IMG/VR virus record: IMGVR_UViG_3300025009_000068
Span: 1 to 64,000 of that record
Direction: 5' to 3' (one strand)
Origin: a virus
DNA length: 64,000 bases
Within the stretch, counting starts at the first letter, position 1. Every line of letters starts with the position of its first letter. Of the stretch, positions 6,101-47,857 are shown piece by piece. Below the pieces are notes generated by a model. The model had not been told where the DNA came from. It searched no databases and saw nothing but the letters and a program-made list of their open reading frames with translations. Position numbers and translations under genes: made by a program.

Positions 6101-6141
6101 TCAAGGATCTCAAAGATCTCAATGATCTCAAGGATCTTGAA
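6101..6141. repeat. 9-bp degenerate tandem repeat (CAAnGATCT) x4 at the convergent gene junction
   Basis: tcaaggatctcaaagatctcaatgatctcaaggatct. Confidence 0.75.
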
Positions 6142-8794
6142 AATACTTCCAGTCCGACATCTCAAACCCGACAAGCAGGGCCGGCACCTCGACGCCGGTC
6201 CCTACTTGATCGATTGCAAAGGTAACGCTACCTCCCGTCGGAAGATATGCAACCCCTCGATCAACCTCAAGCTCGACCGGGATAAACGCCGTCCAATCCC
6301 CGGTCCCGCCTCCGCCAACCAACTTTGTCGTGGTGCTCACAGGGCTTCCGGTCCCGTCGGCGCCCAGGTTGTTTCGATAACCAATCTTCAGGCTGGCGTA
6401 ATCCGTGTTGTCTGCTACCAGTCCTCCCCACTCCGGAACTATCCACGCTTGCTTGATGAATTTGTAATCCGGAGTTGCCCTAGCAAGAGTGAATTCCCGT
6501 GTGGTCCCGATTATGGATACATTTACCTCTGCGGAGTTGCTCACGGCGCTCAGCGTCAAATCTGTTGCGTTTCTACCTAAAACAGTAAAGGGTCCGGTGG
6601 TTGCAAATCCAGCACTGACATACACAAGAGATCCAGGTGGAAAATTAGTAGTATAGGCAAGTCCGGTAACGACCTCGGTTGCCCCGTCGGTATCCCCGGT
6701 CACATCTTTCCCGCAGGCCGGGACGCGCGCCGTATAAGTCTGAGCCGTTAAATCATGGATTTGTCCCTGGCCAATATCGGTCTTGACGTAGACCGTGGCC
6801 GAAGCTGCGGGAGTCCCCGTTGGAACCTCGGCCGACACAGGGCCAAGAGTTATTTCCTGGAATTCATCCAGCAAGCTTTTCACATAAACCGAATTCGCAG
6901 GACCTCCCGGAGACTGGTATGTGATACCGCCGACATAGCTACTTTCCGCTCCATCGAACAGAATTCCATAGGATGGGACAAGGTAGCTGCTCGCTCCGAA
7001 TTGCCCCGAAGCAAGATGCACGGAAGCACCAACGTCATTCCCGGCCCCGTTCCAGCATTCACCAACCACAATCCCGGCATAATTCTCTTCCATTTCCACC
7101 ACATGAAACCTGTCGATGAAAATGGTTTTGATCTCGCCCTGATTGTAATTGGCGTCAGCCGAGCTCTCGCCGTCGGCAACGATATTCCCAACGGTCATCA
7201 AATGCTGATCGGTGTTCCAGGCGTCTCCGTTTTCATCATTACCAGCCAAGCTCACAGTGCCGTGAAGGAAGAAATCCTGGAAAGCCAGTTCGTGCATGTT
7301 GGGTCCGGTTTCCCCCGCTCCGCCCCGGTTCAGCACACGGATTCCTCTCCACCTCGAGTAGCCCAATTGGAAAACCCCGGTATGCTTCAGGTGGTTATGC
7401 GAGCCCGTTCCAACCGCATTCCTCCCAATCTCGTATGCGGCGTGGCTGGCCGCAAAGTTTTCGCTTGCCGTGCCCCCCGTGGCCTCGTAGCCACAGTTTT
7501 GCATCCTGATATTGTGGAACTGGCATTGCTGCATCACATTGCCCGTAACCACGTCATCATATGTGACGCCGAACGGGTCACAGGCCTTCATGCCGGAGCC
7601 CTTGATGTTCGCGTAAAATATATTGTCGAGCTGAACATCCGAATTCTGCCCGGTAAAGACCAAGCCATGACACTGATAGTCCCGACCCCCTCCTTCAAAG
7701 GTAACATTCTTCATCACGAACCCATTGTCATGGGCCGTGGTCCACCAATTGGACGGCGTGCCCCTGTCCGTACTATTCACGGTCATCATGGCCGTCCAGG
7801 CCGCAAGCCCGGCCTTTGGAGAAAACACCGTCCCATAGGTCATGTCCCCGATTATGGAAATCGGCTTTGCATCAACCAATATGCCGGTTGCAAGATAATA
7901 TGCCCCATTCTCGGCATCCAGCCGGCCATGCTGCACAAGGGCTTCTATTGCGCTGTTCCACGCAATCCCAGAATCAACGGTGTTGTCTCCAGCCGTCGCC
8001 CCCCACCATTCCGGGCGCACCCGATTGAGGCCGACAACCTCTCCGGATAATGCGTCGAATATCTGCCATCCACAATCAACGATCCCGGAAAGAGAGGACA
8101 AGGTTCCCGGGAAGGTGAGCGTATTCCCGTCGGGCTCTATCATCGCTCCCTTATGGATTTCGAGCTCCACTTCCTCGGAAATGGTCAGGTTCCCGGTAAG
8201 GACATAGTTTGTCGTCTTCGCCGGGAGGACGACCCTGGCCTGAATTCCCGCCGAATCAAGGTACTCGTTTATGTCGGCAAGGCTGTAATCGTCTAATGCC
8301 CCGGCAACCCCGACCGCTGATTGATCGACTGCAAAGACGTTCACGTAGTACACATGGTCGATGGGGTTTCTGAGCTTGTCCTCAATGATGCTCGACGTGA
8401 GCCTGCATCCTATCCCGGTCCCGACGGCCCATTCTCTCGCAACGGTCCCTTCCTTCCCGCGCTCGACGGTCAGGATGTCCCCTACCCGCTCGGTGATATA
8501 GACGATCTCTTTGTTGTCCGAGGCGTCATATAGCGTTGCCGGCGCATAGGTCCCCGCGGTGGCGGTCGGGTCGGGGAAGAGCGCGCCCGTTCCGGGGTTG
8601 ACGGTTATGGAGGTTGCGGCCGCCGTTATGGTGGTGGCTATGCGCGAGGTCGCGTTGTTGGTGGTGATCACCTTTTCGTAGGCTTGAGCGTGAGAGAGGA
8701 AGGGCAGAGAGATAAGGCCTTGAAAGAGAAGGGCAGAAACAAAAATAAGAATTTGAATCATGTTTCTCATATTATGTAGCGACTGAAATGACAT
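6128..8794 (-). CDS. Tail spike/fibre with beta-helix (pectate-lyase-like) region and N-terminal signal peptide
   Basis: AAGGGG RBS before ATG 8794; N-domain paralogous to 31571-32131; VRPEWWGA..GD..DS..AW..AI tailspike motif. Confidence 0.8.
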   Translation of the reverse strand: MSFQSLHNMRNMIQILIFVSALLFQGLISLPFLSHAQAYEKVITTNNATSRIATTITAAATSITVNPGTGALFPDPTATAGTYAPATLYDASDNKEIVYITERVGDILTVERGKEGTVAREWAVGTGIGCRLTSSIIEDKLRNPIDHVYYVNVFAVDQSAVGVAGALDDYSLADINEYLDSAGIQARVVLPAKTTNYVLTGNLTISEEVELEIHKGAMIEPDGNTLTFPGTLSSLSGIVDCGWQIFDALSGEVVGLNRVRPEWWGATAGDNTVDSGIAWNSAIEALVQHGRLDAENGAYYLATGILVDAKPISIIGDMTYGTVFSPKAGLAAWTAMMTVNSTDRGTPSNWWTTAHDNGFVMKNVTFEGGGRDYQCHGLVFTGQNSDVQLDNIFYANIKGSGMKACDPFGVTYDDVVTGNVMQQCQFHNIRMQNCGYEATGGTASENFAASHAAYEIGRNAVGTGSHNHLKHTGVFQLGYSRWRGIRVLNRGGAGETGPNMHELAFQDFFLHGTVSLAGNDENGDAWNTDQHLMTVGNIVADGESSADANYNQGEIKTIFIDRFHVVEMEENYAGIVVGECWNGAGNDVGASVHLASGQFGASSYLVPSYGILFDGAESSYVGGITYQSPGGPANSVYVKSLLDEFQEITLGPVSAEVPTGTPAASATVYVKTDIGQGQIHDLTAQTYTARVPACGKDVTGDTDGATEVVTGLAYTTNFPPGSLVYVSAGFATTGPFTVLGRNATDLTLSAVSNSAEVNVSIIGTTREFTLARATPDYKFIKQAWIVPEWGGLVADNTDYASLKIGYRNNLGADGTGSPVSTTTKLVGGGGTGDWTAFIPVELEVDRGVAYLPTGGSVTFAIDQVGTGVEVPALLVGFEMSDWKYFQDP

Positions 8795-8807
8795 TGATCT
8801 TCCCCTT

Positions 8808-8978
8808 TCAAAGTTGACAGGTTGGAGAAACGCCGACAAATCCCAAGAAGGAAAGAAACATGCCGACAACAGCAAAAATAAAGAGCCATGCCATAATTGC
8901 CTCTTCCCCATATTTGCGGCACAGTCCCCCGATGCACCCCATGGATAACAACAACATAATCCAGAGCCTCAAACTCAC
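8808..8978 (-). CDS. Small two-TM membrane protein (56 aa)
   Basis: GAGGAGAGG RBS + GTG; two hydrophobic stretches. Confidence 0.55.
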   Translation of the reverse strand: MSLRLWIMLLLSMGCIGGLCRKYGEEAIMAWLFIFAVVGMFLSFLGFVGVSPTCQL

Positions 8979-9000
8979 TATTCCTCTCCTCTTTTTATCG

Positions 9001-12000
9001 TCATTTGAACGCAGCCTTGGTGCTATCATAAACATCTCTGGCTAATTCATTTTTGCTTCTTGTAAGCTCATCAATACTTTTCCGTTTCATTTCTGGCGTG
9101 AGATCCCTACGAAGATGAATGTTTCTGATCTCCTGATCAATCATACTGAATTGTCTTTGCACCTTATTAAAAGTGTCTTTGTATGTCAATTTACGTCGTT
9201 CCCGCTCGATAAGCTCTCCAGCTTTTCCTGGCTCCATGGTTTTCTCATAGCGTCTGACCGTGGCATAAAGCTGGTCAACCTCGCGGATCATCTCGTACAT
9301 GGAAGTGACATACTTGGTGTGGCGGGCCGGGTCTTCCTGAACGAACCGGCGAATGACAGGAAGGTCATCCAGGCGGCTAGCTGGAGGGTCCGGATAATCA
9401 TACATCCATCGCACGGCGACATCGGACGCCATAAGTGCATATGTCCCGAGCGTCCCGAAGTAGCCGCGCATGAAGGCCTCCATCCTCTTAGGGGAAACGT
9501 TGGTGGCTTCCCCGATCACGGACACGGTTTCCCCGGTCCATGGGTCGCGGCGCGCTCCTGGTTGCAAGGCTTGCAGGGACTGTCCCTCAATTGGACGTCC
9601 AGTGAAAAAGCTCTTGTTGGCATACTGCTCAATCATTGGCCCAATGAGCTGCGGAGGCTGCCACGAGAAAGTTTGATTCAGCGTGAACAGCATGCGCCTG
9701 GCAAACTCTTTCGAAGTCCCTTCCCCAAGCCACCACTCGGCCAGCCTCTCCGGGATGGTGGAGAAGATGGCGCCCACCTCGAAGGGTTTGGGGAGACGGA
9801 AATGCTCATCAAGGACAAAGAAGTGATAGTAGTTGTCCCGATCCCATTCCTCAAGCTCCTTATACCTGTCATCATCCGCATTCATGGCATACAAGGCAAG
9901 GGTAGCCCCCATGAGGATCATCCCCTTCGTGGCAAACCCCCTGGGGTTCTCGCGGTATCCATGGTAAAGGCGCTGCGCTCCCTGGAGCCTGGCCCCGAAG
10001 AAGGGAACCGTCTCGCAGAGGAATTTGATGGTCATCCAGTCACCGCGCTTCGAGTAATCCATGATGCGCTTGGCTTCATAGGCCGCTTCGACGTGAGCAC
10101 CGCCACGGGCTCGGATATTGGCATAAATCTGTGTTCTGGTCGCATTCTCGAATCGGCTTCCAAACTTCTCCCAGAACGCCCACATTTTCTTTACGCTGTT
10201 AAGCACCGTTGACCCGTCAACCTTGTATTTCTTGTTGAGCTTCTCAACTTCTCGCTTGGCTGCCTCCAAATCATGCCCAAAAGCATACCCTCCGGAGAAG
10301 GCAGCTCCAGACGCCTGCATCGCCACATAATCCTCATCTTCACGAAAAGTCTTTATCGCCCCCTTCACGGAATCCACCCCGGCCTTGAAGTCGGGGGAAA
10401 CCACCCATGCACTCAAGGTATCTCGAGTAAGGTTGGCGATCATGAAGCCAGGGTCAGCGGTGACGCCCCGAGTAAGGAGTCGCTTGGCTGTCCGCATGGC
10501 CTTCATGGCTGGACCTCCCCATGGGCGCTCGTTCACCGCCGAGAGCGACCGCAATACAAGCGAATCCTGAATGTGGTAATAGACTGGCTTCCCATCGCGC
10601 AAAACGTGAATCACATCGGGACCCTGGGGCTTGGTCATCTGGAACATTCGGTACAGGCTCTGAAGAGACTTGAAATCGAGCAAGCTGGTATCGATACCCA
10701 TGGATTCCAGGAGCGGACCATACTCGGCCTCGACTATCTTCTTGATCTGATTCCCCGGAACAATGGCGGGCTTGAACTGATTCTTGGCTTTGACCGCAAC
10801 ACCCATTTTCTCGGCGGCCTGGATGGAAAGCTCGGTTGCGTGGTTTTTGACGCTGGCGTCCACGAGGTGAGAAAAGTTCATCATGATGTTGACGAATATG
10901 TCCCCAAGCCTCGATTCACCGCCTTTGAGCTTCTTGATGCCACTGTACTGACTTGCGACGGAGTTTTTATTTCGTGGCCCTTTGAGCCCTTGAGTTTCTT
11001 CCATGATCCGGTAGAATGGCACGTACTCGTCGTGGTCCCAGAGAAGACGCTCTTCGGCGTTGATTACTCCACTCGCCTCCGCGAAGTCGAGAACCCCCTT
11101 CTTGAAGGCAATGTAGTCGGCTTCCACCTTAAGGAACTTGGCCTTGTTTTCGGGAAGGGTGATGATGCGCTTGAGTGCCTTGATCTCAGCGTCGGTGAAG
11201 TAGTTCTCGCGGCCCTCGGCCATGAGCTTCTCGGCGCGCTTTCCGACCATCCATCCGAGGAACATGTCAAGTTGGTCGGCCACGGGCTCGAAGACTTGGG
11301 CGAGCCCCTTGTTCCTGGTTGGGGTCCATACGGCGCCTTCCTTCCATTGGGGCACGCCGTGGTTCATCATGGTCGCCAGCATATCCCCGAGAGATGTGGT
11401 CATGGTGGCTGCGACGTATGGGTCTTCCTGGATCCTGGATGCGTTGCTGGCCGTGTCGATCCCGGCTGATTTCGCAAGTGCCTTGAGGGATGCGAACCTA
11501 TCGAAAATGCCCTGCTCGGCCTTGAGCTTCCAGTTGTCGAGAGCGGCGTCGAGCTTCTCCTTCGTTGTTTTTTGGGCCGGGCCGATTTTGTTCAGGGCGG
11601 CATCGATTTCGGCGTCTCCGGTCGAGGCGCGTTGAGCTTTGGCGCGAGACCAGTTTGGGAATTTAGGAAGCTGGGGCAGGCGGATTGCGCCTTGCTCGCT
11701 TTGAAGGGGAGGGGTTAGGGCGGAGCGAAGTTGCTCGGGTTGCTTCTGCTGCCCTTGCTGCTCGGGCTGCTTCCCCGCCGCCTCCCCTTCCGGGCTCAGG
11801 GCCGAGACTATCTGGTCGGAGTTGAAGACGACGTATTCAACGACAGTCTTATCTCTTTTGCCAATTACCCCATCAAAGCCTTGGGATTTCAACGACGCAA
11901 TGTCTTTAGGGGAAAGATTAGCGGAAGCACCTGTATCAAAATCAACGATCTTGGGATTTTTAATAGCCAGATAAACCTGATGCACGCCTGGAACATCGGC

Positions 12001-31464: not shown

Positions 31465-31492
31465 GAAGGTGGGTGCTCCTTCCTTCCAAGGA

Positions 31493-31535
31493 TTGATCCA
31501 GTCAAGAATTGATCCAGTCAAGAATTGATCGATCA
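31493..31535. repeat. 16-bp tandem repeat TTGATCCAGTCAAGAA x2.5, intergenic
   Basis: Directly visible. Confidence 0.75.
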
Positions 31536-31570
31536 AGGATTTATTGCGCTGAACTACCTCTTGCCTCGAG

Positions 31571-32131
31571 CTACTTCTTGATCACCCGAACATAGATGGT
31601 GAATGTCCCAAGGGTAATGGGCGCCCCGGTGTCGTTCCGCAGAATGTAATGAGCGGTGTTGGCCGATTCTATGTAGTAGCTCGGCTTCATGCCCTGAAGA
31701 TCGACGCTTGCCGATGCGATCACGAAATCACCAAGCTCGGCCTCTGCTACTGCAATATCAACTCCGAGCTCGGCACCGCTTGCAATGGCTCCAGGCGTCC
31801 AGGACTTCGTTTCCACTTCAAGGCCCTGCAGGATCGTGTCGAGGTCGGAAGCCGTGAGCCTGCCTTCGATCAATACGCCGGCCGCCCATGCCCTGGCTTC
31901 CGTGCCCTGCTGGCCCCTGGAAACCGTAAAGGTGTTGCTCGTCCTTGCGGTGCATTTCATGATCTCCCTGTTGCCATCCTCGTCTTCCAGGGTGATCCAC
32001 ATGATTTCGCCCGAGCCTATGGCATAGAACTTACTTGCGTCTCCGGACTGGCATTGAAGGCTTGCCGCCGATCTCGTTATGGCGTTCAGAAGGGTGGATA
32101 CCGCAAAGTTTTTGAATCGTGTCTTTGGCAT
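31571..32131 (-). CDS. Short tail fibre/fibre-anchor protein
   Basis: FKNFAVSTL...EIMKCTAR...RGQQGTEARAW N-terminal fibre domain. Confidence 0.7.
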   Translation of the reverse strand: MPKTRFKNFAVSTLLNAITRSAASLQCQSGDASKFYAIGSGEIMWITLEDEDGNREIMKCTARTSNTFTVSRGQQGTEARAWAAGVLIEGRLTASDLDTILQGLEVETKSWTPGAIASGAELGVDIAVAEAELGDFVIASASVDLQGMKPSYYIESANTAHYILRNDTGAPITLGTFTIYVRVIKK

Positions 32132-32223: not shown

Positions 32224-32901
32224 TTACCACCGCATCATCTTGGCCTGCCTGGATCGCTTGACATGGCCCACATCGACGGTATGTCTCGCCATGGCTACCC
32301 CGTCTTGAAAGATCGTTTCGTAGTACACGGCAAGCTTGATGTCGCTCCAGTCTGCCTTTGGGATTTTCATGAGGCGTGAGATGGCTCCTGCTGCGATGGT
32401 TTCTAGCCAGTCATTGTAAACGACGTCTCCAACCGCCGTGGCAACAGCCGACGGCTTGAGTGCGGCCTCAACCTCGATAATGTCTGCCGTCGCTTCGTCG
32501 GGAGGAACATAAAGCCTGATGGTTCCTTGAGTCTCGACAAGGTATTGCGTGGGTGTCCCGCTCTCCGCTGATTCCCAGTTCGGAAGGAGATGATCGAGGA
32601 CCTCTCTAGCCGCGGCATCTATGTCGTTCCCGTCATACCTTACCTTCGTTGGAACCACGACCTCCGTTCCGGCATCCACGAGAAGCGTGTACGTCGGCTG
32701 ATCCACGACCGAGGTGAGGGGGCCGAGCCAGTCACGCCATATCGTTGACATGCGGCAAAACTCACGACATGCGTTCCTTATGGCATTTAGAGCTATAACC
32801 ACCGGACACCCAGGGACGTGCGGCAAGACTTCCGGAAGGAAGAGATCGAAGGATACCGACCCTATCGGAGTTACTGATGTTCCCGACCCTGTTCCGCCCA
32901 T
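32224..32901 (-). CDS. Head-tail adaptor-like protein
   Basis: FLPEVLPHVPGCP...ACREFC...IAAGAISRLMKIP motif. Confidence 0.7.
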   Translation of the reverse strand: MGGTGSGTSVTPIGSVSFDLFLPEVLPHVPGCPVVIALNAIRNACREFCRMSTIWRDWLGPLTSVVDQPTYTLLVDAGTEVVVPTKVRYDGNDIDAAAREVLDHLLPNWESAESGTPTQYLVETQGTIRLYVPPDEATADIIEVEAALKPSAVATAVGDVVYNDWLETIAAGAISRLMKIPKADWSDIKLAVYYETIFQDGVAMARHTVDVGHVKRSRQAKMMRW

Positions 32902-34304: not shown

Positions 34305-35597
34305 TTAAAACATAATGACCGCATTGAGTAGCCGGTATGTGATCTCCAGCTTGGGGCGATTCGTGGGCGTGGCATCACCCGAAGCATAGAAAATGTATTG
34401 ATCATCCGTCTCTGTATCCATCTTCAATAGCCACCCGTTTCCTAAATCCATGCCGCCCGTAGTATTCGGAGTGATATTGATAATGACTACGCTGCCGACA
34501 GCCTGAGTCGCCGTCACTGACGCAGTTCCAATGTCTGTTTGCTCACAATCGTTAGCACCGAAACCACCTGCTGTTTGCCAGTTATTTGCAGTGGAATATA
34601 CGGTCCATGTCACCTGATTAAATACGACTACTCTTTTTAGGCGAAACAACCTCAATGTCCGGGCATTGCTAGAATAGTCACCCGAAACCGTAAGTTTCAA
34701 TGACGATGACACTATCTTAATGCTTTTAGGAACACCAGAAAGATCAAGTTTTATTGCACTTCTAGCGGCTCCAGATCCGGCATTAATCTCTCCGGCCTGA
34801 ATGCCTCCTTGGTAGTTGCTAGAAACATCGGAATCGCGGAACATCGCTTCATGCAATGTGGAATTGTCGGGCTGTAAGGTGAAGGTAGGATCAACCACCG
34901 GCCTCGACATCCCCGCAAGATCCGGCAAGAGAAACAAGATGTAACTCTGACCATCAACACTCACAAACTGCGACTGGATCTCCCTCACGTCTACCGGATT
35001 GGCGGCGTCATAGGCCACGGGCCTTCGTAGCACCATCACGACTTTCTCGCCGTCGAGGATCTGGTTACCTGAACGAGTCAATCCCTGAATACCAACTGGG
35101 AAGGCGAACTTCCCAGTTGGGGGCACGTAGCCTCCCTTGAGCTCAATGTCCAGTTTCAGATAGTGTCCGGCATGGGTAATACTCATGTCCGCTTCGGGCC
35201 TGGTCCAGGTCATCCGGTTCCCGCTTCGTTGCGCCCCCGACCACGGGACTTTCACCCAATTGGCAGCAGGCTTGACGTAGGGACATCCGATTTCTATGTA
35301 CTTATTCAGATCCCTCGTAGGATGAATCCGCCTCATTCCGTCGTCGGCGATGGTCGTCATGAGCTTCGACTTCGTTACGGCATGTGGTCTTGCACCGTCG
35401 CCCGAGTCTTTCCAATTCGTCTCGATCCGATTCCACTTCCCGGCTTCCTCGTAGGCTATGGGCGCAGAGTGGATCGTCATCTTGCGGAGTCCGCCGCCAA
35501 GATTCTCGGTCTCGGCGAATTCGCCCACAACGTCGGCGGCATGAACCGGCAAGGCGAGAAGCAATATCCAAAATGCTATTCTCAGAAACATGATCAT
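34305..35597 (-). CDS. Signal-peptide protein with C-terminal DNRLRE/CBM96-like domain
   Basis: MIMFLRIAFWILLLALPVHA; VVDPT linker; RSAIKLDLS...VTW...NRPKLEITY. Confidence 0.7.
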   Translation of the reverse strand: MIMFLRIAFWILLLALPVHAADVVGEFAETENLGGGLRKMTIHSAPIAYEEAGKWNRIETNWKDSGDGARPHAVTKSKLMTTIADDGMRRIHPTRDLNKYIEIGCPYVKPAANWVKVPWSGAQRSGNRMTWTRPEADMSITHAGHYLKLDIELKGGYVPPTGKFAFPVGIQGLTRSGNQILDGEKVVMVLRRPVAYDAANPVDVREIQSQFVSVDGQSYILFLLPDLAGMSRPVVDPTFTLQPDNSTLHEAMFRDSDVSSNYQGGIQAGEINAGSGAARSAIKLDLSGVPKSIKIVSSSLKLTVSGDYSSNARTLRLFRLKRVVVFNQVTWTVYSTANNWQTAGGFGANDCEQTDIGTASVTATQAVGSVVIINITPNTTGGMDLGNGWLLKMDTETDDQYIFYASGDATPTNRPKLEITYRLLNAVIMF

Positions 35598-35608
35598 TAT
35601 CTTCTCCC

Positions 35609-38600
35609 TTACGGCAACCTGAATCCCAACGTCACGGCTCCACCTTCTGTCCCGGTCCCCGCTTCGGTTACGCATGACGCCGTGATCGTGTCTCCGGTCG
35701 CAACGGTTGCGGCCCCGGCCACGGCAGAGATCACAGCGGGCGTGGTGGCATCCTTGCTGTCGTATTCCGTAGCGTCAATGGTAAGATTGGTGGAAAGCAT
35801 TTGTACCGCTGCATCTCTTGTGGCTGCCGCTGAAAGTCTGAATTTCTCAACCTTGAAAGTCGGGTTGTTCGCGCTGGAGACCGTCCCGACTTGAACCGCA
35901 GCGGACACCAGAACCATCCCGTTCATCTCGGCAGGAACTCGGAACATCCCGCTCGTATCGGCAATGACCAGTGCGGCATCGTCGGCGGTCACGAGAAGGT
36001 GAACCATGCGCGTCCCGATGTTGCTGCCAGCCAGGGCGTCGGGGGTTACGGCTGTCGTCGTGCTGGTTCCTGTGTTGACGTCATTCACGCTTGCTGCGGT
36101 CAACCACGCCGGGACATCAAACGTAGGAGCGGCGGCGGCCCCGTTGCTACGGAGATATGTCCCGTCAGCACCAAGAGCCAATTCCGTCGTGTCTCCGCTA
36201 CCGTTGGAATAGAACACTCGCCAAGCGGTTTGATTGTCGAAGTCCGTAAGGTTAGAAACCAGCGGAACACCCATGAATCGAATCCCACCGGCCCCCGTTG
36301 CCGCTTGCATGAATTCAAGGGCGAGATACTGACTCGCCGCAATACTCGACGGAGCCCCGGCCCTATATGCCGTTCCGTAGGTGATGCTGCGCGGAGTCGC
36401 ATCAGCATACAGAACTACAATAAACCTGGTTCCCACTAGCCCGTTCGTTGGGTTGGATAGTTCTATGTCCCCAGTCAATTCTCCTACCTGGACCACACCG
36501 CCGAGAGAAAGATCAATCGACCGAGGCGTTGCATAGGCCAAGGACTGAGAAGTGTTGTCCTCGCCCTCGAGCACGAAAACGGGAGCATGATAGGCGACTG
36601 CTCCCGCAGTGATATTGGCATCAAGGGCCGGGTACACCGAACAAGCCAGCGTGTCATAGTTGCACGTCCCAATGGTAGCCGTATGCGTCGAGGCATCGTC
36701 CATCGTGAGATCCACGACCATGCCTGGAAATGCGTCCGTAGCCGAACTGAGTACCAGCGATGTGGCTCCATTTGTTCCGGTAGCCGTAGTTAAGCTCGTA
36801 TTGAGTGTTCCGAGCGTCCCAGACTCTTTCACGGTCCAGTAAAACGCAGGATTGACGGTCCACATCACCCTAGTTCCCTGCTTCCACGTACCATAAGCCG
36901 TGTTGGGCGCGTTGGCCGCCGACTTCCAGGACTGACCGTTGTAGCGGACAGCGTGATTCATGCCCACCGTCAAATGAGCCGTGGGAGCTATCCCTAGATG
37001 CCATGCGTTTGAGTCGTCGTACTCTATTCCTTGAATGTATTTAGGGCTACTGGTACTTAATACGCGGAAAGAGTAGTCCGGATTCGGGGCGAGTCCTGAC
37101 GCCGGGTAACTATTGGTCCACGCATTTCCTGTGAGAGTTAGTCCTTTTACTCCATCGCGAACCTCAACCCCCAGGGCATTCCAAAACTTTACACCAGAGA
37201 TCACTATCCCGGTAGACCAGTCCCGGATATCAGCCAAGTCACCATCAGGATCACCTCTGACCAAGATGGAACGAGCACCACTGAACGTCTCGATGTCTCC
37301 GCCGCTGATTGTCACTCCGGATGATGCCGTGATGATGAATCCTGGGGAAGCTCCGCCCGCTTCGACATTGGCCCCAAGAAAACTCACACCCTTTGACTTG
37401 TAGAGCGACCATCCCCATCCATCGAGTGGAGTAGCCGTGTAGTAACAGCCATAGGCGCCAGAGTCTGAAATGACCCAGTTGTTACTATTGTTTCCGAGCG
37501 TGAATCCACGCTTACAGTACACGGCCTTGCAGTTGATAACCTGATTGAAGATTGAACTGTAAACGTTGGGAGCAACAACATTCGCGTCAAGATTCATACC
37601 TTCGGTGAATTCCCTGAAATACAGATTCTCAAACTTGCTGTTGATGCAATGCTTCAACTGAATGGCTGTCGCCGGATGCCAAGATACCCCGGCAGAATAT
37701 GCAATGGTGTTCTTGAATTGGAAGTTCCTGAACTCGTAACTTCGGCCAAGGTTACCGGTATCGTCGTCCTTGAAAAGGTATGTAGCCGAATCATTATACA
37801 GCGTGATGTATGTAGTCCTCCACGCCTCGCCTTCAAAGATTATGGTCCTGTACCCTCCGCTCAAGCTGGCGTCGGTCAAATCGAATCCATCATCAACCAC
37901 ATAATTTCCGGCCTTGAACTTGACCTTCGATGCACCTATGAAATAAGCTCCTGTAGTATTTGACAGTGCCTTGTACGCACAAAAAATGGCGTTTTGGTTA
38001 GCGGCCGCATAGGTATAGGTCGTAGTGTCGTATGTTACTATAGCTCCCCACCACTCAGGGCGAACTTCCAAGGCAGATGGCATCAAAACTTCGCCGGGCA
38101 GGCTGCTGAACATCTGCCCGCCATTGTCTTCAATTACGGAGCCCGCCGCGAAGGTGAGAGTATTTGCTGCCGATGTGGTGAGTATTGCGCCGGGAAGAAC
38201 AGTGAACGTCATCCCAGAAGGGATAACCACCGGACCACCAAGCGTCTCAGCTTCGCTCTGCACCAACTTCACATTCGGCGAAAGCCCCAGCGCATCCACG
38301 GCTTCCACCAAGGAAACAAACCATCCCGAGTACACGGTGGAGCCATCAGGAAAGGAAACTTCACTCCCTGTAGCGAATCGCTGCTGGTTCGGTGGATGTT
38401 CTCCGTCGTTATGGATGGTGAGCAAGAGCCCATTCGTATCTATGACAGCACCGGGGGCTTGCGAGAAAACCTTCGTTACGGGGATCTCCATGCTGTCGGT
38501 AAGAGTGAAACTCTTCCCAGTCAATATTCCGTAGTTGGCATCCGTGGTTGCCGCAGTCAGCTCACCTAACGTTCGAACAATGGTGGTGTTCGGAGTTATC

Positions 38601-38719
38601 CTGCCAGGGCCGGCCGTCGTGGATGTCTGAGCAAGACAGAAAGAAGGCAACAGAAATGCGGCCACCAGAACAAAGGAAAGGATTCTTGGAGTTGAGCTTT
38701 TCATTTTCATCGTCATCAT
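35609..38719 (-). CDS. Tail spike with beta-helix domain and N-terminal signal peptide
   Basis: RILSFVLVAAFLLPSFCLA; VRPEWWGA; beta-helix-like repeats; AVTPDAL fibre motif. Confidence 0.8.
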   Translation of the reverse strand: MMTMKMKSSTPRILSFVLVAAFLLPSFCLAQTSTTAGPGRITPNTTIVRTLGELTAATTDANYGILTGKSFTLTDSMEIPVTKVFSQAPGAVIDTNGLLLTIHNDGEHPPNQQRFATGSEVSFPDGSTVYSGWFVSLVEAVDALGLSPNVKLVQSEAETLGGPVVIPSGMTFTVLPGAILTTSAANTLTFAAGSVIEDNGGQMFSSLPGEVLMPSALEVRPEWWGAIVTYDTTTYTYAAANQNAIFCAYKALSNTTGAYFIGASKVKFKAGNYVVDDGFDLTDASLSGGYRTIIFEGEAWRTTYITLYNDSATYLFKDDDTGNLGRSYEFRNFQFKNTIAYSAGVSWHPATAIQLKHCINSKFENLYFREFTEGMNLDANVVAPNVYSSIFNQVINCKAVYCKRGFTLGNNSNNWVISDSGAYGCYYTATPLDGWGWSLYKSKGVSFLGANVEAGGASPGFIITASSGVTISGGDIETFSGARSILVRGDPDGDLADIRDWSTGIVISGVKFWNALGVEVRDGVKGLTLTGNAWTNSYPASGLAPNPDYSFRVLSTSSPKYIQGIEYDDSNAWHLGIAPTAHLTVGMNHAVRYNGQSWKSAANAPNTAYGTWKQGTRVMWTVNPAFYWTVKESGTLGTLNTSLTTATGTNGATSLVLSSATDAFPGMVVDLTMDDASTHTATIGTCNYDTLACSVYPALDANITAGAVAYHAPVFVLEGEDNTSQSLAYATPRSIDLSLGGVVQVGELTGDIELSNPTNGLVGTRFIVVLYADATPRSITYGTAYRAGAPSSIAASQYLALEFMQAATGAGGIRFMGVPLVSNLTDFDNQTAWRVFYSNGSGDTTELALGADGTYLRSNGAAAAPTFDVPAWLTAASVNDVNTGTSTTTAVTPDALAGSNIGTRMVHLLVTADDAALVIADTSGMFRVPAEMNGMVLVSAAVQVGTVSSANNPTFKVEKFRLSAAATRDAAVQMLSTNLTIDATEYDSKDATTPAVISAVAGAATVATGDTITASCVTEAGTGTEGGAVTLGFRLP

Positions 38720-38795: not shown

Positions 38796-39476
38796 CTACG
38801 CCGCCGGCCTCCGCACTCGAGGATTCGCCCAGCTATCAGCCTGCATCTTGACACCAAGCACCTGATACAGATGCTGCAAATGAAACGCCGCCCTTGCCTG
38901 ATTCGCGGCGCTGTCTATATCCATGGAGAATGCCATCCAAAGAATGGCTTCGTTCAGCGCGGTCTGGTAAATATCCGGAATCCCGATCTCGCTCGTCTCT
39001 CCAGTGCAATCAACCGGGGCCGCGGCAACTACGATCTCGGCATAGGCGGGGGTCGCGGCGTGAACCGGAGGCGTCACATAAAAATGCCTTGGAAACCTTT
39101 CGTCAAAGACATACTCCCGAATCACGGTAGAAGCGGCCTCGGTGTGCCAGCTCAAAGCGTAGCTGTACCTGTCGAGCGTCGCCTTGTCGGTCTTTATGAT
39201 GGGACGTCCTGGTGTCAAGCCGTCGCTCCCCATGTTCCTGATCACTTCGATGAGTCGAACGTCCCCAGTGGGGATGACCTGCTTGGTTCCGGGGGCACAT
39301 TGCATGCTCTTGGGTGTTGCCGTGGCGTCGGGGCGCAGAGATACTATGAAGCGCTGGGATTCATTCAGATACCGCAAGAGCATAGGTTGGGTATAACGAA
39401 CTCGATCTGTCTCTTCCTGAAGCTCGTCAACAATCCTGGACTCCTGGGATATGAAATCGTATGCGGTCAGCGCCAC
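38796..39476 (-). CDS. Head-tail adaptor (DUF6682-like)
   Basis: LLRYLNESQR.IV.LRPDA...GTKQ...VIRNM...FYVTPP. Confidence 0.7.
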   Translation of the reverse strand: MALTAYDFISQESRIVDELQEETDRVRYTQPMLLRYLNESQRFIVSLRPDATATPKSMQCAPGTKQVIPTGDVRLIEVIRNMGSDGLTPGRPIIKTDKATLDRYSYALSWHTEAASTVIREYVFDERFPRHFYVTPPVHAATPAYAEIVVAAAPVDCTGETSEIGIPDIYQTALNEAILWMAFSMDIDSAANQARAAFHLQHLYQVLGVKMQADSWANPRVRRPAA

Positions 39477-41001: not shown

Positions 41002-41937
41002 CTACGTCAACACCGCATTGGCGTACAGGAGCGAAATGGCCTCGGGCCGCACCACCTCGAAGCCGTACACGGCGTAACCGCGCATGAGCTTGCCGAATGT
41101 GGTGGGGCTGGGGATGGCCTCTGACTTCTCCACCTGCATGGCGAAGGTGAGTCCCATCTTGTGGCCGGCCATGATGTAGTAGGCCGTGACACCGGAGCCG
41201 TCCGCGACGTAGGGGACGTTGTTGGTTTTGAAAAGAGAAAAGCGATCTATCTTGCCCACGCGGCCGCCGTTTCGGAGGGTGGACATGGAGTCGCCGGTAA
41301 GGGAAGCGTCCTTTATGTCCGATCGCTTCAGCATGTTCTCGAAAATGGGCGGAAGAAGGACCCACCACCCGCCGTCATCCGGGATGTTCTGCTCATCGAG
41401 GACCGTTCCCATGTGGATGATGTGGTCCAGGATGTTGGTCTTGTCGATGGCGATGGGCGCCCCGCTGGTACCCAGGTTGAACGCTCCACTCTTTACGCCG
41501 GCCGTCGTGCCCTGGTTGTCCGCGTGGATGTCGGCATACATGGCACCGAACACCTGAGTTTCAATCGCCCGCTTCTTGTTTTCGACCGCCACCACCGACC
41601 AGCGGTCGATGATGTTGATGTCGCTCTGGGCCTTGTCGAAATCGTGGACCAAGAAGTTCCAGCCCTTGGCCCGGTCGATGGTCAGGGTTTCCGTGTCGGT
41701 ATCCGGCTTCTGAACGGGGAGCTCGGCGCCGGGCACGGTGTCGAAGATGTTGATGTCGGGGTCTTTCCTGATGATGACCTGGCTGCCAAAGCCGGTGATC
41801 TCGCCTTGATAATCTGTGTTCGAGATAAAGGGAAGACAAAGTGCATCATACAGTCTGACCAGCACTTTTTGACTGAACAGGTAGGGGATGAAAGTCCCCT
41901 GGTAATTGGGATGTCCCGCTGCGGGAATGAAAGCCAT
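41002..41937 (-). CDS. Major capsid protein
   Basis: FIPYLFSQK...NTDYQGEI...RGYAVYGFEVVRPEA pattern; AAGGAG RBS; follows the scaffold gene. Confidence 0.88.
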   Translation of the reverse strand: MAFIPAAGHPNYQGTFIPYLFSQKVLVRLYDALCLPFISNTDYQGEITGFGSQVIIRKDPDINIFDTVPGAELPVQKPDTDTETLTIDRAKGWNFLVHDFDKAQSDINIIDRWSVVAVENKKRAIETQVFGAMYADIHADNQGTTAGVKSGAFNLGTSGAPIAIDKTNILDHIIHMGTVLDEQNIPDDGGWWVLLPPIFENMLKRSDIKDASLTGDSMSTLRNGGRVGKIDRFSLFKTNNVPYVADGSGVTAYYIMAGHKMGLTFAMQVEKSEAIPSPTTFGKLMRGYAVYGFEVVRPEAISLLYANAVLT

Positions 41938-42013: not shown

Positions 42014-42095
42014 GGATTATATGGAAGGACAGCGGCTCATCCTCTCGGGTTTATGAATTAGGTTGGCCTTGAAGGTGAGTGTGGTGAAACTGAAT

Positions 42096-43805: not shown

Positions 43806-43819
43806 ACTTTCTCCTTTTG

Positions 43820-44140
43820 AGAGCCTTGAAGGGTGGGGCGGGGAGCAAGGCCGCGCGCTAAGGGTGTTCACCGTGGCGTGGATGATCCACAACCAACATG
43901 GCGAGCCCGGAACCGCGAGCCTGTCCCACTCCCTCCCTTCGAGGTATTCTCTGGTTGTGCCTGGCGGAGCCGAGAAGGGATGGATCTAAGCCACTTCCTC
44001 CACGGTGTTCCGCTCAAGGCAATGCGTTGAGGTGTGTGGTGGTTGATGTGAATGATGGTGCTGATTGTAATGTGATGGTTGATGATTATTTGGAGCCTAG
44101 ACAGCGCCGATAGTCGCCACCGACGTGTTGCCACGGCTCC
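43820..44140 (-). promoter_or_regulatory. Structured 5' leader of the scaffold gene with four AYA/C internal-loop hairpins
   Basis: Base pairing read directly; see finding. Confidence 0.65.
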
Positions 44141-44162
44141 CGTGGATGGAAGTGAAGATATG

Positions 44163-44238
44163 AAAAAAAGTAGATCGCGCGGCCAGGCCCATGCGGGAGT
44201 ATGGGCTCTTCGGGGATCTCTCCCTAGACCGCGCGATC
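44163..44238 (-). terminator. Terminator-like branched hairpin followed by U7
   Basis: GATCGCGCGG/CCGCGCGATC stem, then TTTTTTT on the - strand. Confidence 0.55.
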
Positions 44239-44280
44239 ATTGTATTATCAGTACGCAATCAGCGCAAGGCCAACCTTTGC

Positions 44281-45939
44281 TTAATTATCCCCTAAATTTA
44301 TCCAAGTAACCGTGATGGTCCCATTGGCGGTCAAAGAGTCTGCCGCACCGGTCGTGATGTCGGCATCATCCACTTCCACGTTTAGATACAGATCGATGGC
44401 CGTTGTGTGACCGTCGTGATAAACCTGCTCGGTGACGGTGCTTTGGAAATCAGCGGCAGCAACACTTGCTACCGCCTGAGTGGTTGCCACCGTGGGGACC
44501 CAGTCGTCTTCCGTGGTCGGATTATGCAGGGTAGGGGTAGCCTCTGCTGCCGTAGTGCCGAGCGAGATATCGCCGTCAAAAGCAGCGTCTATCGTTCCTG
44601 ACGCCTCGGTCAGAGTGAGGTCGGCCACGACACCCATGGCGAGCAATCTGCCCTCGGGGAAGTCGTAGATTTTCAGCCCGCCGTAAGCAGCGGCCCCGCC
44701 CGGATCGGTGATTGCAATGGTTGCATTGGTCAACGTGAAGACGGTTTGGCATATCGCCCCAACACATCTTTCCGCAGCCACGACACCGGCACCGGCTCCA
44801 GCTTCTACGCCGGGTGTACCAGCTATAATCACATCATCAAGAGCTGAACCGATGGTGATGGTGTCCTTTACCGAATTGTCCGTTCCGATGTTGTAAGTGG
44901 CTCCCAAGGTTCCGTTTACAGCAAAGATGCCCCCTGCGCTCTCCATGGATACCGTAAGATCGTCGGCAACCGCGAAGTCCATATCATCGGCTGTATCGAG
45001 GGTAATGTCCTCGCCTTCGATATCCACATCATCCAGGGCCGAACCTATGTCTATATCGTCAGCAACCGAATTGTCCGTTCCTATGCTATAAACTGCCCCA
45101 AGGGTCCCGTCGAACGAAGCGATACCGCCTGCGGTCTCCATTCGGACAGTGTAATCATCGGCTACGTTGAATTCCAGGTCGTCCGCTGAGTCCAAGATCA
45201 GGTCATTACCGTAGATGGTGGTGGCATCCTTTGCCGAGCCTATATTAATGGTGTCCGCCGTGGTGTCGTCGGTGCCGATATTGATGGTAAAACCGGACGT
45301 ACCGGTAACAGCAAAAATGCCTCCGGCTGATTCCATGGTAAAGGTCCAGTCATCGGCTACCGTTGCATTGCCATCATCGGCTGTATCGAGGGTAATGTCC
45401 TCTCCTTCAATGTCAACGTCATCCTTTGCAGACCCGATATCGATGTTGTCGGCCGTGGTGTCATCCTCTGCAATGGAGTAAACCAGCCCGGCCGTGCCAT
45501 CAATGTCGATCAACCCAGATGCCGTAGTGCTGGTGATCTGAATGTTGTCCACGGAGCTTACGATGATGTCGCCGCCATTGGTTAGCGTCTCCACCTTTAC
45601 GGAATCGGCCCCTGACCCTTCGCTTGAAATGAGAATGGAAGCGTTTTGGTTTCCGTTGAGATCGAAAATCATGTCCTCGCCGGCAGCACTGGCTGTCACC
45701 GTAAAGATCATGTCACCTGTAGTGTCCACGTCGAGACTGTCCATGGATACAATTTTCCCGCCGCGGGTAATCTCGAGCTTGTTTACGGTGAGGACTTCGT
45801 AGCGAGCCGCCTCCGCGATTGTGATCCCGAGAAAACAAATAATCCCCAGGAAGAGAGTGAGGACCTTGCCGAGGGTTTCCTTTTTGCTGCTTTTGGTGAT
45901 GGTGGTGCTTTGGGTAATTCTTTTGTCAATTCTTTCCAT
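44281..45939 (-). CDS. Accessory virion fibre/decoration-like protein with internal acidic repeats and signal peptide
   Basis: Repeats of IGTD..D.I.IGSA.DDV; C-terminal YDFPEG...DLYLN...GTITVTWINLGD; VLTLFLGIICFLGITIAEA. Confidence 0.7.
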   Translation of the reverse strand: MERIDKRITQSTTITKSSKKETLGKVLTLFLGIICFLGITIAEAARYEVLTVNKLEITRGGKIVSMDSLDVDTTGDMIFTVTASAAGEDMIFDLNGNQNASILISSEGSGADSVKVETLTNGGDIIVSSVDNIQITSTTASGLIDIDGTAGLVYSIAEDDTTADNIDIGSAKDDVDIEGEDITLDTADDGNATVADDWTFTMESAGGIFAVTGTSGFTINIGTDDTTADTINIGSAKDATTIYGNDLILDSADDLEFNVADDYTVRMETAGGIASFDGTLGAVYSIGTDNSVADDIDIGSALDDVDIEGEDITLDTADDMDFAVADDLTVSMESAGGIFAVNGTLGATYNIGTDNSVKDTITIGSALDDVIIAGTPGVEAGAGAGVVAAERCVGAICQTVFTLTNATIAITDPGGAAAYGGLKIYDFPEGRLLAMGVVADLTLTEASGTIDAAFDGDISLGTTAAEATPTLHNPTTEDDWVPTVATTQAVASVAAADFQSTVTEQVYHDGHTTAIDLYLNVEVDDADITTGAADSLTANGTITVTWINLGDN

Positions 45940-45999
45940 TTCGTGGTTCTCCTTTTCTTTTTTTCGTTGTTATGGCTGTAGCATGGTGCATGGTGCATA

Positions 46000-46299
46000 T
46001 TATTTTCGTTGGGGTTTAACCCAAACCCCATGGGTGGTATTCCACGCCTTGCCATGGGCGTTATAGCTCATGATCCGAAACATCAAGAGCCCCTTATCGG
46101 GAGCGCCACGCCAAACGTACTCGGTCTTGGCGCTCCCCGTGTCCCGAATCTCTCCCCATGACCGGCCCCTAGTCGTTGAGATCTGGAGCTTGTAGCCGGT
46201 CGCTCCGGCTGAGGCGTCCCACTCCAACGGGATGTCTGCCGCGAAGGAATAGGACGCAAGAATGATGGTGATAGCTATCGTAAGCAGTATTCTCCCCAT
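46000..46299 (-). CDS. Secreted fibronectin type III-like protein
   Basis: Signal ending SFA; LEWDASAGATGYKL...FRIMSYN. Confidence 0.7.
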   Translation of the reverse strand: MGRILLTIAITIILASYSFAADIPLEWDASAGATGYKLQISTTRGRSWGEIRDTGSAKTEYVWRGAPDKGLLMFRIMSYNAHGKAWNTTHGVWVKPQRK

Positions 46300-46350
46300 C
46301 AATCCTTCTCCGCTCCAACAAAATATCAACGCACCCACCCAACCGTCTCC

Positions 46351-47319
46351 TTAGCTGGCCCCGCCGTCCTCCCATTGGTTTCTATAATTGAGTCCATCTG
46401 CTACCGTGGAGGATCGGTTGTGAAGGCACATATAACTCCCTGCCGTCGCTGGTGAATCTATGCAGTCCCCGGCCCCAATACCCGCCGAGTATGACCCGCC
46501 CACATCACCGTTGAATTGCATCGCGTCAGACACCATATCAACGGTCAACACGGCAGCAGCATCAGTCCGGTAACACGCAAAATAGTTCGCAGTTGCAGGA
46601 TGCCGAATCGTGCCGGCAACGGAAGCATGGAAAACCGAACCGGACTGAGCAGGTCCAGGCCCGAACTGATAGACGTCGTTGATGTCCCAGTTGTTGTCGG
46701 TCCCACCTGCAAGAGTGCAGGTTGCTCCGGTGGCTGTCGAGGCTGTAACCGTGCAGCTTGATGTATCTGTGACGTTGTAGAGCATCATACCAACTTTTGC
46801 AGAGGTGGCGCTTGAATCGTCGGCATGGATCAGCGTCGCACTGTCATCGGTTGTGGTGTGAACGCCGGATGGTGCGGTCAGAATAATGGTATCCATGAGG
46901 CGCGGAGCCTTGGTCTCCACCGCAGTCTCAAGATCCTGAAACGCTTCCGGGAGCTTGGGGTCATCTCTGACTGTTGACCCCGTGAATGTCCCGTAAGTGT
47001 TACCAGGAACTAAAGCCACGGATGTGCTTGAAGCTGCCGCAGCCTCAGCATTTGTGGCGGTCTCGATCTTCCCTGCCACTGTCGAGGATGCGGCAGGGAC
47101 ACCAGCGACCACATCTATAGACCCAACCCCGCCAGTCTCACTCAACGCTCCATTGGAAACCTGAATTTCATAAACAGGCTTCTTGCTGGGACTTCCATCA
47201 GGCTCGGAAACAAGAATGCGGCCTCGCGCGGCATGGGAGCAAGGAAGATGAAATGATACGACAAAAAAGCATGCGATAAAAAATGTAAACAGCAAATATT
47301 TATATGATTTCATGCCCAT
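46351..47319 (-). CDS. Accessory fibre-like protein with signal peptide
   Basis: KYLLFTFFIACFFVVSFHLPCSHA; ASSTVAGKIETATNAE fibre motif. Confidence 0.7.
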   Translation of the reverse strand: MGMKSYKYLLFTFFIACFFVVSFHLPCSHAARGRILVSEPDGSPSKKPVYEIQVSNGALSETGGVGSIDVVAGVPAASSTVAGKIETATNAEAAAASSTSVALVPGNTYGTFTGSTVRDDPKLPEAFQDLETAVETKAPRLMDTIILTAPSGVHTTTDDSATLIHADDSSATSAKVGMMLYNVTDTSSCTVTASTATGATCTLAGGTDNNWDINDVYQFGPGPAQSGSVFHASVAGTIRHPATANYFACYRTDAAAVLTVDMVSDAMQFNGDVGGSYSAGIGAGDCIDSPATAGSYMCLHNRSSTVADGLNYRNQWEDGGAS

Positions 47320-47344
47320 GCAACTCCTTTGATGACTTCTATTC

Positions 47345-47857
47345 CTATGGCCTCTCAATATCAATGTAGATCACTCCGCCGTTCGCTGCCCCGGCAGCAC
47401 TAACAGCCACCGTGACCTTCTCAAAAATCCACAACTCTCCCAGCACGGGGAGCGCGGGCTCGGTCACAGTGGCGCTGCGATTGTCCAAACTCCCGCCATC
47501 CAGATCGATTCCCGTAGCTGCCCCAGAGAGAGAAATGTCGTAAGCTGCATCCGGAGCGAGAGCACCCCCCGACGGATCGGTGATAAACTGGTCAATGCGG
47601 CCAAGAAGTGGAATGGCGGTGGTGCATGCGTAGGCCCCGGCTCCATCCGATGTCCAGGCTATTGCATAGCGCGTGGTATGGCCATGGGTCGAGGGAGTGA
47701 GGGAGCAATCCACGGCATGAGAGACTGACGGGAACGAAAGGAGTGCCATAAAAATGAGAATGGAGGCCACAGCCATGGTAGCGGCCGCTGTCAGGATTGC
47801 CTTGAAGGGTGGAATCCCTCTCCTCTTCGCCGTATTTACCTTTATCACTCTCTTCAT
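47345..47857 (-). CDS. Accessory virion-type protein with signal peptide
   Basis: Long hydrophobic region ending VSHA; WTSDG...APDAAYDISL...DNRS motif. Confidence 0.7.
   Translation of the reverse strand: MKRVIKVNTAKRRGIPPFKAILTAAATMAVASILIFMALLSFPSVSHAVDCSLTPSTHGHTTRYAIAWTSDGAGAYACTTAIPLLGRIDQFITDPSGGALAPDAAYDISLSGAATGIDLDGGSLDNRSATVTEPALPVLGELWIFEKVTVAVSAAGAANGGVIYIDIERP

Follow-up and report, generated by a model that had tools for sequence, protein, structure and literature searches.

Seven spike, fibre and accessory proteins encoded in the late operon of an uncultured phage begin with Sec-type leaders that are very probably genuine export signals. The phage is represented by an 89,432-bp IMG/VR record (IMGVR_UViG_3300025009_000068) that CheckV rates as complete, and the window analysed here comprises its first 64 kb. 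Judged by its genes, the phage is of the short-tailed type, with an HK97-type podovirus core of terminase, portal, adaptor and nozzle. According to the textbook account, tailed phages are assembled wholly in the cytoplasm. An earlier note on this DNA proposed that Sec-type leaders had here been added to virion-type proteins. This is strongly supported by a leader swap between close relatives, by leaderless homologues that start at the mature end, and by exchange between signal peptidase I (SPI) and lipoprotein leaders among relatives. Since the leaders have the character of genuine secretion signals, maturation of these seven proteins probably takes place outside the cytoplasm, the compartment in which the core of the particle is assembled. 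For comparison we used two related genomes from IMG/VR, G001 (IMGVR_UViG_3300002097_000027, 85 kb, portal 82% identical) and G002 (a 30-kb fragment, portal 72% identical). Other loci and proteins are given by our own L and P numbers.

Leader anatomy and the leaderless core

The late operon occupies the minus strand from about 52.8 kb to 6.1 kb. It encodes, in order, the terminase, the portal, four small-to-medium genes, a Gln-rich scaffold-like protein, the capsid protein, two SU10-type adaptor paralogues, a nozzle-like protein, Gly-rich internal proteins, a protein of 4,576 amino acids (aa) and a terminal spike gene. We refer to the leader-bearing proteins by the position of their start codons, all on the minus strand. 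Reading the translations, we found all seven N-termini at the starts that the earlier note had named. The leaders are MSFQSLHNMRNMIQILIFVSALLFQGLISLPFLSHAQA ahead of mature YEK in the 8794 protein, MMTMKMKSSTPRILSFVLVAAFLLPSFCLA ahead of QTS in 38719, MIMFLRIAFWILLLALPVHA ahead of ADV in 35597, MGMKSYKYLLFTFFIACFFVVSFHLPCSHA ahead of ARG in 47319 and MGRILLTIAITIILASYSFA ahead of ADI in 46299; the two longer ones end in ASILIFMALLSFPSVSHA ahead of VDC in 47857 and in LTLFLGIICFLGITIAEA ahead of ARY in 45939. The ribosome-binding site (RBS) support claimed for these starts was found in every case, as a GGAG/AGGA-type site 5–12 nucleotides (nt) upstream, weakest at 38719. Translation from a start downstream of the leader would have spoken against export, and there is no in-frame start codon just behind the leaders of 45939, 47319, 46299 and 38719; the 45939 gene has a single start codon within its first 70 codons.

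Each of the seven leaders has at least one Lys or Arg ahead of its hydrophobic core and a net charge of at least 0. The predicted cleavage sites (AQA/Y, CLA/Q, VHA/A, SHA/V, SHA/A, SFA/A and AEA/A) have small residues at −3 and −1 and no Pro at +1. The hydrophobic region (h-region) is 10–16 residues long in 35597, 38719, 46299 and 47319, compared with about 7–15 in a typical signal. We scored the leaders with a rule-based script calibrated on internal, shuffled and homologue sets. Its strict form required a basic n-region, an uncharged core with a Kyte-Doolittle mean of at least 2.7, small residues at −3 and −1, and no later membrane span. Seven of the 27 late proteins were positive, exactly the seven of the earlier note, as were none of 10,684 internal pseudo-N-termini of the same late proteins and 0.8% of shuffled N-termini. 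Because the loose form of the rule is permissive and also flags spurious open reading frames (ORFs), we gave the comparative evidence more weight than the script score.

Other leader types were considered. None of the seven leaders has a lipobox ([LVI][ASTVI][GAS]C) at the end of its h-region, and a lipoprotein signal on 38719 was rejected for lack of one, its Cys standing at −3 in PSFCLA. A conserved RR ahead of the h-region occurs only in 47857 among the seven. A twin-arginine (Tat) signal was rejected there, since the residues after RR in KRRGIPPFK (KKRRSSPFK in G001) do not fit S/T-R-R-x-F-L-K. The earlier argument that multiple Cys residues point to export failed: the leaderless portal, nozzle-like protein and terminase contain as many, so that Cys richness does not mark exported proteins.

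The core proteins lack leaders, as had been stated. Negative in the strict test were the portal (48155–50614), the major capsid protein (41002–41937; Pfam Phage_capsid_4), both SU10-type adaptors (38796–39476, directly upstream of the 38719 spike gene, and 32224–32901; Pfam PF24175, E 2.3e-21 and 3.5e-8), the nozzle-like core tail/virion protein (29026–31536), all on the minus strand, the Gly-rich internal proteins and the 4,576-aa protein. The terminase and the wall hydrolase (52397–52834; Pfam Hydrolase_2) were negative as well. The portal was recognised by tblastn to the annotated portals of Rhizobium and HMO-2011-type phages, and is 25–31% identical to those of Rhizobium phage TM3_14A and HMO-2011-type podophages. 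The protein called nozzle in the earlier note has a single strong family match, phrog_511 (E 1e-99), which is annotated 'internal virion protein'. Around the leader-bearing genes, a weak consensus scan found no excess of promoter-like sites (6 against a shuffled expectation of 8.8) or of terminator-like sites (11 against 12.9). This is consistent with co-transcription of the leader-bearing and the other late genes without demonstrating it, and we rejected autonomous moron units because these signals are not above the shuffled expectation.

The 8794 spike and its tail anchor

The terminal spike/fibre gene (6128–8794, minus strand) encodes 888 aa. Its leader occupies codons 1–38 (8681–8794) and is followed by an anchor domain at about residues 41–142 (8369–8674) and then by a pectate-lyase-like body with the motif RPEWWGA. 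From YEKVITT on, the G001 orthologue shows 97% identity, whereas its leader, MQRQKPTPSWPFMALLVAFSFFAASFSFQFQSPSISNA, has an unrelated sequence that nevertheless again runs from basic through hydrophobic to small-x-small. The DNA homology between the two genomes begins exactly at the Ala(−1) codon. A GTG at 8671, three codons behind the cleavage site, was tried as an internal start and rejected, as it has no spaced RBS and is GTA in G001; the GTA therefore removes the sole candidate for a leaderless internal start of this spike. The leader replacement came with an indel. A stretch of about 200 bp (8795–9000, minus strand) lies between the 4,576-aa gene and the spike gene in the window, carries a 75-aa hydrophobic ORF (8808–9035) and is absent from G001, where the spike starts 49 nt after the giant gene.

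The earlier note had also claimed that the spike shares its anchor domain with a protein that has no signal. BLASTP bore this out: spike residues 46–142 align with residues 8–102 of that protein (36% identity, E 7e-12). The paralogue is a leaderless 186-aa protein (31571–32131, minus strand) encoded between an adaptor gene and the nozzle-like gene, and PHROG tail-fibre N-domains match it from residue 3–6. The offset of the alignment, 38 residues, equals the length of the leader. Similarly, position 6 of the PHROG tail-fibre N-domain profiles phrog_6427/8469 matches at spike residue 44–45. The modelled anchor has its best PDB match in the tail fibre of phage GP4, from the solved portal-tail complex of that phage (8jov; phmmer E 3e-10; Foldseek E 7.8e-8, template-modelling score 0.76, 34% identity). 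In an AlphaFold2 (AF2) model of spike residues 1–180, built from a 45-sequence alignment (mean predicted local distance difference test score, pLDDT, 83.5), the leader forms a separate helix (residues 4–28), followed by a low-confidence linker and a compact domain with pLDDT >90. Because the anchor model matches the GP4 tail fibre, we read the 8794 spike as carrying a true particle-docking domain.

Searched exhaustively with phmmer, 1.84 billion representatives included 8,110 relatives of the anchor, of which we inspected the best 150. In about 145 of these 150 the anchor starts within residues 2–8. Only two of them, P0159 and P0165, have a signal-like leader ahead of it, and the genomic contexts of these two were not found among viral contigs. 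The anchor of the 8794 precursor starts at residue 41–46 rather than at the extreme N-terminus, and removal of the 38-residue leader would leave it at the N-terminus, as in its leaderless relatives. Neither this spike body nor that of the 38719 protein has a Pfam match or a PDB sequence match. The 'beta-helix' label given to both is based on a PEWWGA-type motif, seen by eye, and on protein-atlas look-alikes that carry Beta_helix and Pect-lyase_RHGA_epim, which serve as a lead only.

Leader turnover in the other six proteins and their relatives

The second spike-like protein (35609–38719, 1036 aa) has its leader in codons 1–30 (38630–38719), with the predicted cut at CLA/QTS, and no recognisable anchor domain. 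Only three homologues were found; those in G002 (L004, from 20939) and P0155 keep a leader of different sequence. Next to it lies the gene for a DNRLRE-domain protein (34305–35597, 430 aa; leader codons 1–20, 35538–35597; predicted cut VHA/ADV). Its DNRLRE identity holds, with NCBIfam NF033679 scoring 43.7 bits against a cut-off of 34 over residues 253–420, and a Pfam Disaggr_repeat match falls below its cut-off. About 110 of 120 relatives are leaderless and begin M-x-L..E.DELGGGR, and this start aligns with the predicted mature end of the window protein, ADVVGEFAETENLGGG. The few leader-bearing members are the nearest relatives of the window protein, and their leaders are mutually unrelated. 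Between the window and G001 the leader matches at 12 of 22 positions, against about 85% identity in the mature part.

Two further observations concern this family. In the G001 orthologue (from 26319; L009/L028) another in-frame hydrophobic segment, MTGFLITFIGIVLWVLF..., lies upstream of the leader and has a strong RBS. The precursor there may have two hydrophobic segments, or the upstream one may be a separate small membrane peptide. A leaderless relative is encoded a few kb from a CRISPR array and cas1 in an Anaerolineales (Chloroflexota) metagenome-assembled genome (L032, DCVA01000018.1); it is the sole match in named genomes, too little for a host assignment.

The remaining four leader-bearing genes lie between the portal and scaffold genes. 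The 47857 protein (47345–47857, 170 aa; leader codons 1–48, 47714–47857; predicted cut SHA/VDC) has a leader with a long n-region, the conserved twin Arg and a 22-residue h-region, and its mature part has two conserved Cys residues. The leader is 50% identical to that of G001, with indels, and the mature part about 90%. Its motif PFKAIL also opens the otherwise different leader of P0155, the 38719 homologue, which hints at leader exchange between genes. The 47319 protein (46351–47319, 322 aa; leader codons 1–30, 47230–47319; predicted cut SHA/ARG) weakly matches phrog_24595 'virion structural protein' (E 3.5e-5). Its G001 orthologue (L003 12383–15436) has 1017 aa, with the same leader and N-terminal part, a beta-helix insert that is 44% identical to part of the 38719 spike, and a C-terminal part that is 98% identical. 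This alignment shows an enzyme domain gained or lost as a module within the cluster of head genes. The 46299 protein (46000–46299, 99 aa; leader codons 1–20, 46240–46299; predicted cut SFA/ADI) is identical in G001, and its mature part is FN3-like by eye, with no profile match behind it.

The fourth, 45939 (44281–45939, 552 aa), is a repeat fibre with its leader in codons 1–44 (45808–45939; AEA/ARY) and a C-terminal jelly-roll knob at about residues 380–552. In its AF2 model the middle is disordered or made of repeats and the C-terminal part is a jelly-roll, which in Foldseek matches carbohydrate-binding modules, the short-tail-fibre domain of cyanophage A-1(L) (8ke9) and Bdellovibrio Bd1399. 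Homologues of similar length bear leaders in 27 of 30 cases. These are classic leaders of unrelated sequence, many with Gln at +1, and two of the homologues (P0017 and P0025) have lipoboxes. In a wider metagenome sample the knob occurs mostly in leaderless proteins of about 200 aa encoded right after the capsid gene. Leader-bearing forms are a minority there, and in one subgroup of them diverse leaders precede a mature start that is conserved, ETDY/ETDP. Searches of cultured phages turned up no homologue of the 47319 or 35597 proteins and, for the knob, only one relative, a leaderless protein of 201 aa from Pseudomonas phage Rollin.

Where the leaders of the window and of G001 differ at all, their divergence outpaces that of the mature parts. 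The comparison of homologues with and without a leader, which the earlier note had proposed as a check, came out in favour of export: leaders are replaced while the tripartite pattern persists, and homologues that lack one start where the mature protein would. The leaders are thus maintained and replaced by new, functional-looking ones, which argues for selection on export.

Leader-bearing genes also occur together. Loci with a leader-bearing member of one of these families encode three to six more leader-bearing proteins in the structural region, four in L029 and four to six in a row after the capsid gene in L084 and L107, and G001 and G002 resemble the window in this respect. No further leader-bearing structural genes were found at loci with leaderless members (L057, L061, L076 and L031), nor on any structural-region gene examined in Rhizobium phage TM3_14A, the closest cultured relative by portal. 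By this distribution, leader-bearing appendages are a trait of the genome. Searches of PHROG and Pfam gave nothing for most of the leader-bearing neighbours in L084, L107 and L029. In two low-GC uncultured podophages (L023 12712–15006 and L027 12768–15071), a nozzle/tail protein (phrog_376, E 1e-168) starts MK-hydrophobic-LFA/Y. Its gene is ATGA-coupled to the adaptor gene, and the protein extends about 16 residues beyond the family profile. A leader-like N-terminus on a core tail protein would be far harder to explain than one on accessory spikes.

Several observations were made elsewhere in these genomes. The early region of the window encodes a 121-aa protein (3392–3757, plus strand) with a textbook signal peptide, MNAKLATVATMIIIVMILMASQVSA ahead of IKV, which is 94% conserved in G001 and was outside the list of the earlier note. 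A protein with one membrane span and a coiled coil (54880–55254, minus strand) is encoded next to a 160-aa lipobox protein (54351–54833, minus strand; LSILGG/C), near the Hydrolase_2 wall hydrolase. They may form a spanin-like pair, and in that case an outer membrane would be expected in the host. The G001 portal gene (L003 8329–11586) has an intein-like insert of about 270 aa (CLTGDTVV...HNS), Cys-rich and with HNH-like motifs, that the window portal lacks. Proteins identical to those of the window are also encoded on a 140-kb contig.

Possible docking at lysis or free action

From the sequence anatomy, start sites, evolutionary behaviour and domain identities described above we infer translocation, cleavage, periplasmic folding and docking along the following lines. 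A phage lineage would have grafted Sec-type signal peptides onto otherwise ordinary appendage modules. The precursors would be made late in infection from the structural operon and carried across the inner membrane by the host Sec machinery, and the leader would be cut after the A/S/V/C-x-A site. Most leaders appear cleavable by SPI; that of 45939, and perhaps that of 47857, may stay as a membrane anchor. Folding of the mature proteins would then take place in the periplasm, away from the cytoplasm in which the capsid, adaptor, nozzle and internal proteins are assembled. After cleavage, the 8794 protein would begin exactly with the canonical N-terminus of a GP4/T7-type tail-anchor domain, and this spike would most likely dock on finished particles once lysis breaches the inner membrane. 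The other six may attach by way of as yet unrecognised partners, or work as free proteins on the envelope or on extracellular polysaccharide, in egress or in receptor removal. We would give this mixed model, in which the anchor-bearing spike docks and the others dock or act free, an even chance of being right. More tentatively, and at somewhat less than even odds, some tailed phages may finish their particles outside the cytoplasm, with exported and processed spikes and fibres docking at lysis. Many uncultured phages, as well as cultured Cellulophaga phages, would then share the trait at the level of lineage or host, and in some lineages it may even reach core tail proteins, such as the nozzle-like proteins of L023 and L027.

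Known systems resemble this arrangement in part. The anchors of the GP4 fibre (8jov) and of T7 gp17-type fibres (PHROGs 8469, 6427 and 30299) match the 8794 domain by sequence and fold, with a variable receptor-binding or enzymatic body behind, but they are leaderless, whereas the window spike has a 38-residue Sec-type leader ahead. A parallel in the leaders themselves is phi18:3 (NC_021794), a cultured podophage of Cellulophaga baltica, in which the appendage proteins bear leaders and the core does not, the same split as in the window. Its gp085, gp086 and gp087 are large late proteins with textbook leaders (..FGYS/QV, ..GVSA/QT and ..GLNA/QT) and are annotated in the genome record as structural or tail 'based on experimental MS/MS proteomics analysis' (MS/MS, tandem mass spectrometry). 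The other virion proteins of phi18:3 detected in this way are leaderless. However, gp085–087 have no PHROG or Pfam match, and no sequence similarity was detected between phi18:3 and the window proteins. Phi18:3 also has a Bacteroidota host, Gln at +1 and no Shine-Dalgarno use, and we found no paper that discusses its leaders.

Other phage proteins use the same export route for other ends. Lambda Lom and Bor, T5 Llp and Cor are exported moron or exclusion proteins inside late operons. Like the window proteins they are signal-peptide proteins encoded among tail genes, and they are delivered to the host envelope. They differ in being small outer-membrane proteins or lipoproteins, which often have a promoter of their own and are produced in lysogens, whereas the window proteins are fibre, spike and lectin modules of 99–1036 aa, one of them with a tail anchor. 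Lys44 of Oenococcus phage fOg44, P1 Lyz and R21 of phage 21 are endolysins exported by Sec or by signal-arrest-release (SAR) sequences, and thus late proteins that leave the cytoplasm by way of the host Sec system and stay outside it until the cell lyses. They are single wall-acting lysis enzymes rather than receptor-binding or virion-type proteins, and the window's own wall hydrolase is leaderless. In filamentous phages (coat proteins pIII and pVIII) and in the membrane-containing phages PRD1 and PM2, virion proteins travel via Sec or YidC, and their assembly takes place at the inner membrane or beyond it, but these viruses belong to other realms with membrane-based assembly, unlike the HK97-type podovirus core of the window. 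Our literature search found no paper describing leader-bearing tail spikes or fibres. Signal-peptide genes in phages are remarked on in general for P. gingivalis phages (PMC10367356), and lambda Lom is described as a signal-peptide gene (PMC12309495).

That exported proteins join particles at lysis, in the two-compartment assembly of the earlier note, is plausible from the intact anchor of the 8794 spike and from the leader-bearing structural proteins of phi18:3. Several points weigh against it. The h-regions of 45939 (17 residues, with almost no c-region), 8794 (about 21) and 47857 (22) are long for cleaved signals and fall in the range of membrane anchors. The 45939 h-region, LTLFLGI(I/V)CFLGI, is, unlike the other leaders, conserved while the bodies behind it differ after about residue 60 (L004 11863–13740, P0004 and P0029). 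This segment may function as a membrane anchor or belong to a mobile N-terminal module, and since it is conserved across different bodies the former suits better; with its very short c-region the 45939 leader may thus be a signal-anchor. Furthermore, no docking domain was recognisable in six of the seven leader-bearing proteins by Pfam, PHROG or NCBIfam, the leaderless paralogue at 31571–32131 could fill the anchor sites in the cytoplasm, and the MS/MS detection in phi18:3 could reflect co-purifying secreted proteins.

For the six proteins without a docking domain, action as free exported depolymerases or exclusion factors is about as likely as docking. Extended to all seven, this would mean that the signals are genuine and that no exported protein joins a particle. 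The proteins would then be periplasmic or secreted enzymes and lectins that remove capsule, extracellular polysaccharide or matrix during egress, or else take away or cover receptors so that neither superinfecting phage nor progeny are lost on infected cells and debris. Their folds are those of extracellular carbohydrate-active or carbohydrate-binding proteins (the knob resembling carbohydrate-binding modules, the DNRLRE/disaggregatase repeat and the pectate-lyase-like look-alikes), exported phage surface factors such as Lom, Bor, Llp and Cor are established, and the leaderless anchor paralogue together with a leaderless 315-aa protein (fibre-like by eye, with no family match) could supply the particle with fibres. 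We nevertheless consider this reading, and the roles it assigns, rather unlikely. A free enzyme needs no anchor, yet the 8794 spike keeps a complete one, within a protein 97% identical to that of G001 from the first mature residue. Since leaders are present on both spike-like enzymes that the genome encodes, the particle would be left without a depolymerase. In addition, leaderless forms of the same families occupy ordinary virion-gene positions, and leader-bearing proteins are on record in the virion proteomics of phi18:3.

The long h-regions would also suit N-termini that stay uncleaved, as signal-anchors on the outer face of the inner membrane or with release upon depolarisation as in SAR endolysins, keeping the proteins inactive or concentrated until lysis; the Ala/Thr-rich first half of the 47857 h-region is reminiscent of SAR sequences. 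As an account of all seven this is improbable: small residues stand at −3 and −1 in every leader, with Pro or Ser just ahead in most, four h-regions of 10–16 residues are too short for a stable span, and both the swap breakpoint and the starts of leaderless homologues coincide with the predicted cleavage site rather than with the end of the hydrophobic core. Partial or leftover export, with enough precursor or an internal-start isoform staying in the cytoplasm to assemble normally, could follow if Sec capacity is impaired late in infection, and the GTG behind the 8794 cleavage site would offer such a start. Its loss in G001, the lack of start codons behind four other leaders and the maintenance and functional-looking replacement of the leaders make this very improbable. 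Finally, an artefact of wrong start codons or chance hydrophobic N-termini is close to refuted. The rule-based scan is crude, and its loose form errs as described above, but the strict rule gave no internal hit, the starts are RBS-supported, and signal-like character survives complete sequence turnover in orthologues and homologues.

The presence of export leaders on tail spikes and fibres is apparently an undescribed trait. What makes the window valuable is three clean comparisons: a leader exchanged precisely at the cleavage codon, an anchor displaced by 38 residues, and three families that each include leaderless as well as leader-bearing members. An exchange at the cleavage site together with both forms in one family gives a criterion by which similar phages can be recognised from sequence, and Cellulophaga phage phi18:3 offers a cultured system for a direct test of the idea. 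Annotation pipelines and host-range engineering assume leaderless fibres, and recombinant depolymerases from such phages would need removal of the leader or an export host. If appendages with standard docking domains do pass through the periplasm, completion of the particle would be coupled to lysis, and infectivity would depend on the host Sec machinery and signal peptidase. Spikes could then use oxidative folding, metal loading or glycosylation unavailable in the cytoplasm, and the same enzymes could remodel the surface of the infected cell from within.

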